From Escherichia coli (GTDB taxonomy: Bacteria > Pseudomonadota > Gammaproteobacteria > Enterobacterales > Enterobacteriaceae): DNA of 64,000 bases. The stretch lies in assembly GCF_030384885.1 (NCBI RefSeq), contig NZ_CP128613.1; one strand, given 5' to 3'. The stretch's first letter is position 1. Every line of letters begins with the position of its first letter. Position numbers: made by a program. Below, in pieces: positions 27,001 to 30,000 of the stretch.

Positions 27001-30000
27001 GGGGGTTACCATTCTTGATGAAAATGGTCATACCCTGATTTCGCTTACCGGACCGGAAAGCAAGATTAAGAGCGATCCTCGCTGGATGCAGGAACGTTCC
27101 TGGTTTGGCTATACGGAAGGGTTCCGGGAACTGGTGCTGAAGAAAAACCTGCCACCTTCATCGTTAAGCATCGTCTATTCGGTGCCGGTTGATAAGGTGC
27201 TGGAGCGCATTCGCATGTTGATCCTTAACGCGATTTTACTGAATGTGCTTGCCGGAGCCGCGTTGTTTACTCTCGCACGGATGTACGAGCGGCGTATATT
27301 CATTCCTGCGGAAAGCGACGCCCTGCGACTGGAAGAGCACGAGCAGTTTAATCGCAAGATTGTCGCTTCCGCGCCAGTGGGTATCTGCATTTTGCGTACC
27401 GCTGATGGCGTTAATATTTTAAGTAACGAACTTGCGCATACCTATCTCAATATGCTTACGCATGAGGATCGCCAACGACTGACGCAAATTATCTGTGGTC
27501 AGCAGGTCAATTTTGTTGATGTCCTGACCAGCAACAATACCAATCTGCAAATCAGCTTCGTCCATTCGCGCTATCGTAATGAAAACGTGGCTATTTGTGT
27601 GCTGGTGGATGTTTCTTCGCGCGTGAAGATGGAAGAGTCGTTGCAGGAGATGGCACAAGCAGCGGAACAGGCGAGTCAGTCAAAATCGATGTTCCTTGCC
27701 ACCGTAAGTCATGAGCTGCGAACGCCGTTGTATGGCATTATCGGTAACCTGGATCTGTTGCAAACCAAAGAGCTGCCAAAAGGCGTCGATCGTCTGGTGA
27801 CGGCAATGAACAACTCTTCCAGCCTGTTGTTGAAAATTATCAGCGATATTCTCGACTTCTCGAAGATTGAATCGGAACAGTTGAAGATCGAACCGCGTGA
27901 GTTTTCACCGCGTGAAGTGATGAACCACATCACCGCCAACTATTTACCGCTGGTGGTACGCAAGCAGTTAGGCTTGTACTGTTTTATTGAACCGGATGTG
28001 CCAGTGGCCTTAAATGGCGACCCGATGCGTTTACAGCAGGTCATCTCCAACCTGTTGAGTAACGCCATAAAATTCACCGATACCGGCTGTATAGTTCTGC
28101 ATGTTCGCGCTGATGGCGATTATCTCTCTATCCGTGTTCGCGATACCGGCGTGGGGATTCCGGCGAAAGAAGTGGTGCGCTTGTTTGATCCCTTCTTCCA
28201 GGTCGGCACGGGCGTACAGCGTAACTTCCAGGGGACTGGTCTGGGTCTGGCGATTTGTGAAAAACTGATCAGCATGATGGACGGCGACATCTCGGTAGAT
28301 TCAGAACCGGGAATGGGCAGCCAGTTTACTGTGCGTATTCCGTTGTATGGCGCTCAGTACCCGCAGAAAAAAAGCGCGGAAGGGTTGAGCGGGAAACGCT
28401 GCTGGCTGGCAGTCCGCAATGCGTCGCTCTGTCAGTTCCTGGAAACCAGTTTGCAGCGCAGCGGCATAGTCGTTACAACATACGAAGGGCAGGAACCGAC
28501 TCCCGAAGATGTGTTAATCACCGACGAGGTAGTGAGTAGAAAATGGCAGGGCAGAGCGGTAGTGACCTTCTGTCGTCGTCATATTGGTATTCCGCTGGAG
28601 AAAGCGCCCGGGGAGTGGGTACACAGTGTGGCGGCCCCGCATGAGCTCCCGGCATTGCTGGCACGTATATATCTGATCGAGATGGAGAGCGATGATCCTG
28701 CTAACACTCTGCCGACGACGGACAAAGCGGTCAGCGATAATGACGATATGATGATTCTGGTCGTGGATGATCATCCGATTAACCGGCGTCTGCTGGCAGA
28801 TCAGTTGGGATCGTTGGGTTATCAATGTAAAACTGCGAATGATGGCGTCGATGCGCTTAATGTACTTAGCAAGAATCATATCGATATCGTGCTTAGCGAC
28901 GTCAACATGCCAAATATGGATGGTTACCGCTTGACGCAACGCATTCGTCAGTTGGGACTGACGTTGCCGGTAATCGGAGTAACTGCTAATGCGCTGGCTG
29001 AAGAGAAGCAGCGGTGTCTGGAGTCCGGTATGGACAGTTGCCTGTCGAAGCCGGTAACGCTGGATGTTATAAAACAGACACTGACGGTATATGCCGAGAG
29101 GGTCCGGAAATCGCGGGAATCGTAGGCTTATAAGACATTTACGCCGCATCTGGCATTCAGTGCAAATGCCAGATGCGACGCTGGTGCGTCTTATCTGGCC
29201 TACTTTGTTGTAATCCATTGAAATAATGGGAATCGTAGGCCGGATAAGGCGTTTACGCCGCATCCGGCATTCAGTGCAAATGCCAGATGCGACGCTGACG
29301 CGTCTTATCTGGCCTACAGATGATTAGTCTTTATCTGCCGGACTTAAGGTCACAGAAGAGAGATAATTCAGCAGAGCAATATCGTTCTCGACACCCAGCT
29401 TCATCATCGCAGATTTCTTCTGGCTACTGATGGTTTTGATACTGCGGTTCAGCTTTTTAGCGATCTCGGTCACCAGGAAACCTTCCGCAAACAGGCGCAG
29501 AACTTCACTCTCTTTTGGCGAGAGACGCTTGTCACCATAACCGCCAGCACTGATTTTTTCTAACAGGCGAGAAACGCTTTCCGGGGTAAATTTCTTCCCT
29601 TTCTGCAGCGCGGCGAGAGCTTTCGGCAGATCGGTCGGTGCACCTTGTTTCAGCACGATCCCTTCGATATCCAGATCCAATACCGCACTAAGAATCGCCG
29701 GGTTGTTGTTCATGGTCAGAACGATGATCGACAGGCTTGGGAAATGGCGCTTGATGTACTTGATTAAGGTAATTCCATCGCCGTACTTATCGCCAGGCAT
29801 GGAGAGATCGGTAATCAACACATGCGCATCCAGTTTCGGCAGGTTGTTGATCAGTGCTGTAGAGTCTTCAAATTCGCCGACAACATTCACCCACTCAATT
29901 TGCTCAAGTGATTTGCGAATACCGAACAAGACTATCGGATGGTCATCGGCAATAATTACGTTCATATTGTTCATGTAATAGGCTACCTTGCTACAGCAAG

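Follow-up and report, generated by a model that had tools for sequence, protein, structure and literature searches.

The DNA analysed here is a stretch of 64,000 nucleotides from Escherichia coli (NCBI RefSeq assembly GCF_030384885.1, contig NZ_CP128613.1; called the window in the following), and the element under study is a cluster of repetitive extragenic palindromes (REPs) between its genes rcsC and rcsB. The whole window is matched at 100% by positions 198845-262844 of the E. coli 2013C-4282 record NZ_CP027579.1. According to the annotation rcsC lies on the plus and rcsB on the minus strand, which bears out the convergent junction described in an earlier note on this DNA, and the intervening gap of 198 bp is almost completely filled by repeat. 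The locus is arranged as follows:

26276..29125, plus strand: rcsC coding sequence, taken from the list of open reading frames (ORFs), the annotation of the identical record NZ_CP027579.1 and the translation, which ends in ...YAERVRKSRES and stop
29107..29203, plus strand: repeat unit 1 (97 nt), consisting of the 15-nt flank GAAATCGCGGGAATC, a y REP, a 13-nt linker and an inverted z2 REP
29122..29154, plus strand: REP1, y-type, GTAG intact, 5′ arm decayed (GCT-TATAAGACAT instead of GCCGGATAAGGCGT), from alignment to K-12, O157 and other alleles
29155..29167, plus strand: linker l of unit 1, tail-to-tail, ATTCAGTGCAAAT, 13 nt, length and position as in the Rfam naRNA4 consensus
29168..29203, minus strand: REP2, z2-type, CTAC at 29200-29203 (GTAG on the minus strand), from pattern scan and folding
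29204..29234, no strand: head-to-head spacer, 31 nt, similar to the L linker of bacterial interspersed mosaic elements (BIMEs), from alignment with the canonical BIME-1 L linker and with sister Escherichia and from shuffle tests
29211..29223, minus strand: predicted core resembling an integration host factor (IHF) site, TTTCAATGGATTA (pattern WTTCAANNNNTTR), from pattern scan
29220..29317, plus strand: repeat unit 2 (98 nt), consisting of a 15-nt flank, a y REP, a 13-nt linker and an inverted z2 REP
29235..29268, plus strand: REP3, intact y-type, GTAGGCCGGATAAGGCGTTTACGCCGCATCCGGC, from pattern scan and folding
29269..29281, plus strand: linker l of unit 2, tail-to-tail, ATTCAGTGCAAAT, from sequence and Rfam alignment
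29282..29317, minus strand: REP4, z2-type, CTAC at 29314-29317, from pattern scan and folding
29324..29974, minus strand: rcsB coding sequence, from annotation and the translation, which ends in ...SPADKD and stop; the stop codon TAA is read on the minus strand at 29324-29326

A repeat search detected two direct repeats, one of 74 nt (29130-29203 and 29244-29317, 93% identity, spacing 114) and upstream of it one of 21 nt (29107-29127 and 29220-29240, 86% identity, spacing 113). Pairwise alignment merges both via a 1-nt indel into units of 97 and 98 nt, which are 88.8% identical and have a period of 113-114. Comparison of the region with itself thus shows two collinear, near-identical units, as the earlier note had proposed; its values for unit length (about 90 bp) and spacing (112 bp) were slightly too small. 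Each unit begins with 15 nt (GAAATnnnGGGAATC), followed by a y REP with the GTAG first, the 13-nt linker and an inverted z2 REP ending in CCTAC. The first unit was said to overlap the end of rcsC, and it does: it includes the final 19 nt of the gene (29107-29125), and the rcsC stop codon TAG (29123-29125) sits in the GTAG of REP1 (29122-29125). Between the units lie 16 nt of unique sequence, TTTGTTGTAATCCATT (29204-29219). The term tandem, used for the array before, is correct insofar as the units are repeated; they are not strictly head-to-tail, and the spacer is an L-type BIME linker and not a duplicated flank. A repeat this long and this identical cannot be due to chance within 700 nt, and the REP consensus patterns had no match in 100 shuffles of the window. 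Tandem Repeats Finder reported nothing at this locus, presumably since the array falls short of two full periods, which does not count against the repeat. Among the REP sites of the window only the one at rcsC/rcsB has long paired direct units.

REPs are defined by a conserved GTAG at the foot of a palindrome (PMC3333891, PMC8266576). All four elements carry this tag (GTAG at 29122-29125 and 29235-29238 on the plus strand, CTAC at the ends of REP2 and REP4), they are imperfect palindromes of 30-40 nt, although REP1 does not fold alone, and they are dispersed in high copy: the median number of places hit by a 531-bp query covering the junction (28950-29480) is 29 per E. coli genome. Their alternating orientation confirms that the units are REP-containing and of the BIME type. 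Reported lengths are 35 nt for y, 37 nt for z2 and 29 nt for z1 (PMC8266576), so that the REPs of the window, with 34 and 36 nt, agree with y and z2 and disagree with z1. A z1 label for the longer REP was considered as well; it was ruled out by these lengths and by the alignment to naRNA4, and the element was assigned to z2. The REPs and units were folded separately and the single REPs compared with shuffled sequences:

REP1 alone: -4.3 kcal/mol, z +0.33, no better than shuffles
REP2 alone: -22.1 kcal/mol, z -6.4, 0 of 200 shuffles as good
REP3 alone: -20.9 kcal/mol, z -4.4, 0 of 200 shuffles as good
REP4 alone: -21.4 kcal/mol, z -6.6, 0 of 200 shuffles as good
Unit 1 entire: -41.1 kcal/mol (plus strand) and -48.9 kcal/mol (minus strand), single long hairpin
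Unit 2 entire: -51.1 kcal/mol (plus strand) and -56.6 kcal/mol (minus strand), single long hairpin

REP1 fails to fold alone because its 5′ arm is decayed in this lineage; its equivalent is intact in K-12 and O157. The same decay is visible in the comparison with the Rfam family naRNA4 (RF02564, gathering score 59.5 bits), whose model is based on the 77-nt y-linker-z2 units of REP325 (PMC4550694). Unit 2 matches over the full length with 84.3 bits on the plus and 62.9 bits on the minus strand, both above the gathering score. Unit 1 reaches 50.9 and 36.4 bits and stays below it on account of the decayed y REP, where the alignment flags non-canonical pairs. Matches to the plant and animal microRNA families MIR6140, MIR3440, MIR814 and mir-5856 were rejected, since they are far below their gathering scores and reflect long palindromes only.

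The definitions of BIME-1, BIME-2 and atypical BIME are given in PMC3333891. Alternating y and z2 REPs, as found here, are typical for BIME-2, but the head-to-head REPs are separated by the L-like spacer of 31 nt and not by a short S linker. BIME-1 has an L linker often bearing an IHF site (PMC3333891), and the spacer is L-like with an IHF-like core; however, the partner REP is z2 and not z1, and there are four REPs instead of two. The combination of BIME-1 and BIME-2 components in multiple copies, whose number varies between strains, corresponds to an atypical BIME, and judged from its sequence the locus is one, with the order y-l-z2-L′-y-l-z2. The head-to-head pair around an L-type linker is also seen in the BIME-1 or RIB/RIP elements (z1 inverted REP, L with IHF site, y REP; for example between chbG and katE). 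These elements contain a 29-nt z1 where the window has a 36-nt z2, and they are single-copy without outer REPs (PMC3333891). Compared with the atypical BIMEs of Bachellier et al. and Ton-Hoang et al. (2012; PMC3333891), the window shares the alternating y and z2 REPs, the short tail-to-tail and L-type linkers and the multiple copies in strain-variable number; it differs in that its L-like linker has 31 nt, diverged from the canonical 35 nt, and in that the homology of the units enters a coding sequence by 15 nt. With the REPINs, which are mobilised by RAYT/TnpAREP, the units share the inverted REP doublet, the capacity to form a long hairpin and the intact GTAG guides; the locus, however, is conserved in place across Escherichia lineages and not recently inserted.

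The spacer deserves a closer description. Its initial 16 nt are unique, and its final 15 nt (GAAATAATGGGAATC) match the 3′ end of rcsC at 12 of 15 positions. The IHF-like core is located at the position that ATTCAATATATTG has in the canonical L linker. The canonical BIME-1 used as reference (z1 inverted REP, L linker, y REP) is found with 99% identity over 99 nt in E. coli genomes, at 40 or more places per genome, one of them between chbG and katE. Spacers at the same junction in Escherichia sp. E1V33, E. coli E69 and E. coli SCPM-O-B-8794 are clearly related to the L linker (shuffle P 0.005, 0.0004 and 0.009, respectively), as in the example TGTAATATATTGAA aligned to canonical L TGCAATATATTGAA. 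By hand count, this flank shares no more than about 7 of 15 positions with the end of rcsC in the sister lineages E1V33 and E69. For this reason we read the additional similarity in E. coli as a probable secondary homogenisation between the units, resembling gene conversion, and not as the trace of a duplication. The spacer type of the window is found in about 237 genomes.

By locus and structure the cluster is equivalent to REP162 of E. coli K-12, and in this respect it is already catalogued and represents known biology. The supplement of a preprint (10.64898/2026.03.23.713779) names the K-12 homologue REP162 at convergent rcsB/rcsC, lists the K-12 z2 hairpins at 2316832-2316874 (corresponding to REP4) and 2316942-2316985 (corresponding to REP2) as bidirectional terminators and associates rcsB, rcsD, micF and rcsC with the REP162 terminators. 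A literature search for REP together with rcsC and rcsB turned up nothing specific. K-12 MG1655 and the window have the locus, the flanking genes and the succession of the four REPs in common, as well as the period of 114 bp and an rcsC stop located inside the first GTAG; the K-12 gap is 199 bp long. Over the 531 bp of the query, identity between K-12-type genomes and the window is about 94%. The two differ in where the units have diverged: in the window REP1 is decayed and the l-z2 halves are nearly identical, while in K-12 it is the y REPs that are almost the same and the l-z2 halves that differ, the second z2 being a perfect palindrome.

To follow the copy number within the species, 5,426 complete E. 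coli genomes were surveyed with a 60-nt probe spanning the junction between the units; a synthetic three-unit query was unable to separate the allele classes, since overlapping pieces were joined. The 531-bp stretch itself is present with at least 99% identity in only 47 records and with 90-95% identity in 4,402. The following alleles were observed or deduced:

At least two units: gap 199 bp for two; junction probe found in 4,436 of 5,426 genomes (81.8%)
One unit: gap 85 bp; confirmed in Nissle, strain 1190 and strain B1; 7 of 40 and 11 of 60 evenly spaced rows, about 17%
Three units: gap 313 bp; strain c1-17, exact 114-bp period, chimeric middle unit; rare
Four units, inferred: as many as 3 junction sites in a single genome; rare

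The locus is in one piece in 5,336 genomes, so that about 900 genomes lack the junction. Up to 3 junctions in one genome suggest that a four-unit allele may exist. The claim that copy number varies between strains is therefore confirmed at this locus, with one, two and three units seen in E. coli genomes. In the single-unit alleles, linker and z2 REP are like unit 1 in strain 1190 and like unit 2 in B1 and Nissle, which suggests that units were deleted at least twice, with crossovers at different positions. Identity between units is about 89% in every lineage, but the differing positions are not the same from one lineage to the next; such a mosaic fits gene conversion. About 89 genomes have no intact locus. 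The one inspected, strain DL21 (NZ_CP079747.1, 1565351-1566120), carries an IS1A in place of rcsB, rcsD, micF and the 5′ part of ompC, with the breakpoint about 26 nt past REP4, within the 3′ end of rcsB. A deletion of this IS1 type may explain many of the genomes without the locus.

Beyond E. coli, the junction was examined by a pattern scan with one genome per species (120 loci, 108 of them with a usable junction; the sequence of E. albertii stops before the junction). A classifier based on GTAG plus hairpin misclassified clear Citrobacter REPs among the 108 junctions, and only its gap lengths and folding energies were used. Other Escherichia lineages either have the four-REP skeleton, its outer REPs being partly deleted, or one unit. 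In Salmonella and several Citrobacter species a pair of head-to-head REPs lies between rcsC and rcsB, and in Klebsiella, Enterobacter, Lelliottia, Pantoea, Serratia and most other genera the gap is 38-65 nt long with one strong hairpin. The junction therefore seems to require a hairpin and not a REP as such. That it is usually occupied by a hairpin agrees with a function where the transcripts of both genes end. The RcsC C-terminus ...YAERVRK(S/T/A)RE... is conserved across the Enterobacteriaceae, and the REP is therefore not the origin of the coding end. In Enterobacteriaceae bacterium MGYG-HGUT-00110 (L087) the gap is 324 nt long and contains four tandem units of about 79 nt, each of them a copy of the final rcsC codons (AAGCGCGGGAGT...) together with one inverted REP of another type. 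This array clearly looks like an independent amplification at the same junction that took coding 3′ sequence along.

Taken together, we consider it highly likely that the locus is an atypical BIME, REP162, that acts as a hairpin array at the ends of transcripts arriving from both directions and changes its length by unequal recombination. Because it fills the gap between convergent genes, the cluster would be transcribed into the 3′ untranslated ends of both mRNAs. There the REPs of either strand could fold singly or as 83-nt y/z2 hairpins, which most probably halt or dampen transcription coming in from both directions and obstruct 3′-to-5′ exonucleases; for K-12 this is based on published transcript-end data. 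The rcsC and rcsDB transcripts would thus be ended and protected by the cluster. A REP closer than 16 nt to a stop codon is reported to lower translation (Liang et al., 2015, as related in PMC12306157). Since REP1 overlaps the rcsC stop and REP4 ends 6 nt from the stop codon of rcsB (29324-29326), both genes are within the 15-nt range for which hindrance of terminating ribosomes by REP hairpins is reported, and ribosomes terminating on rcsC and rcsB might be hindered, which would dampen translation termination. As the 97-nt units are direct repeats, unequal homologous recombination could gain or lose whole 114-bp periods and would yield the alleles with one, two, three and possibly four units that make up the observed polymorphism, while gene conversion would keep both units similar. 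It has been reported that the BIME copy number per locus varies between strains and that TnpAREP recombines BIMEs in vitro (PMC3333891). The roles in 3′-end stabilisation and as targets for insertion sequences (IS), which the earlier note ascribed to such arrays, agree with the literature (PMC3333891; preprint 10.64898/2026.03.23.713779).

Several points weigh against this interpretation. Termination and stabilisation in the present strain are extrapolated from K-12. The preprint 10.64898/2026.03.23.713779 reports no general gain in mRNA half-life from terminal REPs and a large variance from locus to locus. Since REP1 has lost its own hairpin, ribosome stalling on rcsC would need the longer y/z2 hairpin. 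Furthermore, the spacers of K-12 and of the window resemble canonical L weakly (shuffle P about 0.07-0.08); on its own the case for this spacer as a diverged positional homologue of the L linker is weak, and it leans on the clearer sequences of the sister lineages. The outcomes of the terminator and promoter scans, by contrast, are in its favour: the former yielded one weak match only in the gap (29167-29186, 6 pairs; 0.6 expected), and the T-run of an intrinsic, Rho-independent terminator is absent after every REP hairpin. The promoter scan of the gap found no promoter-like site. A classical intrinsic terminator and an independent small RNA (sRNA) gene were set aside because of these scans. 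An antisense ORF (28514-29263, 249 aa) and a further ORF (29091-29213, 40 aa) were not counted as genes; they overlap rcsC or the REPs.

The array might instead have arisen by a simple tandem duplication of a segment of about 114 bp that copied the final rcsC codons and one REP pair, the REP content being incidental. The homology indeed continues beyond the REP for 15 nt into the rcsC codons upstream, with 12 of 15 positions identical, the three-unit alleles keep an exact 114-bp period, and the four units of L087 with their terminal rcsC codons demonstrate that such duplications occur at this junction. But the 16 nt between the units have no counterpart at the outer flanks and are missing from one-unit alleles, the full 31-nt spacer aligns to the BIME-1 L linker, and E1V33 and E69 keep the four-REP skeleton despite their low flank similarity. 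We therefore regard an origin by segmental duplication as unlikely. A main role at the DNA level is also rather unlikely; in that case IHF on the L-like linker and gyrase on the y REPs could form a topological barrier between the converging transcription units. The IHF-like core is retained at the canonical position of the L linker, where BIME-1 elements often bear an IHF site (PMC3333891), and gyrase cleavage sites are over-represented in BIME-2, mostly in y REPs (PMC6379681). On the other hand, the core is lost in the sister lineages E69 and SCPM8794, and the supplements of the gyrase map (PMC6379681) contain neither rcsB, rcsC nor REP162. Such a role would be compatible with one at the RNA level and does not exclude it.

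It is very unlikely that each unit is a nucleoid-associated sRNA like naRNA4, which together with HU would bridge cruciform DNA and condense the chromosome. This activity is reported for the REP325 unit naRNA4 (PMC4550694), and unit 2 exceeds the RF02564 gathering score on both strands. However, the Rfam model is effectively a generic y-linker-z2 pair, so that a match indicates the sequence class and not the function; the linker sequence departs from the consensus, no promoter-like site was found nearby by the scan, and the function of naRNA4 itself is contested (preprint 10.64898/2026.03.23.713779). A unit of the window resembles those of REP325 in its arrangement of y hairpin, 13-nt linker and z2 hairpin, which have 77 nt there, but REP325 comprises six units with another inter-unit spacer between the co-directional genes yjdM and yjdN (PMC4550694), whereas the window has two units between convergent genes and a different linker sequence. 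Finally, exchange between the units could have shaped the RcsC C-terminus, and the number of units, from one to three or more, could act as a dial on RcsC/RcsB output among lineages. RcsC ends in ...RKARES or ...RKARKS in the sister lineages and in ...RKSRES in E. coli, a change that brings the rcsC codons closer to the copy in the L linker. We give this combined proposal, the exchange at the rcsC end included, very little credence.

REP162 is not the only REP site of the window, which holds five more intergenic regions with REPs. The earlier note had listed similar clusters at four other convergent junctions. REPs are present at three of them, of which the latter two are single REPs:

41066-41166: REPs in the convergent mqo/eco gap
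54288-54317: single REP between ccmH and narP
61470-61499: single REP between yejK and rplY

The fourth, nrdB/nrdA, is no convergent junction, both genes being on the minus strand in one operon. At 1546-1657 these co-directional genes are separated by a cluster of three REPs in the order y, inverted z-type and y; an nrdAB transcript containing REPs is among the cases of Liang et al. (2015) in which a REP near the stop lowers translation, according to PMC12306157. A further REP at inaA/yfaE (88-123) was missed by the note. The y/z REP pair in the mqo/eco gap gives a second naRNA4 match (41081-41163, minus strand, 60.2 versus 59.5 bits).

Other features of the window include the following:

32975-33068, minus strand: MicF antisense RNA between rcsD and ompC, Rfam 116.8 bits, expected here in E. 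coli
58102-58175, minus strand: tRNA gene, annotated as tRNA-Pro, at the Rfam gathering threshold
61893-61918, minus strand: L25 ribosomal-protein leader upstream of rplY, at the Rfam gathering threshold
47938-48560: ccmA, annotated as frameshifted pseudogene in the identical RefSeq record
4647-5607: frameshifted, truncated hypothetical gene between nrdA and ubiG in the identical RefSeq record

The value of these results lies mainly in a correct annotation: the cluster is a textbook example of REPs in a BIME and already has its number in K-12. With alleles of one, two and three units and REPs at most 15 nt from both stop codons, the junction is in addition a natural test case for the relation between REP number and the expression of convergent genes. 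The flanking genes belong to the Rcs phosphorelay, and its dosage has an effect on capsule and on the responses to envelope stress. If the number of units did act as a dial, capsule, biofilm and envelope-stress signalling would be affected.

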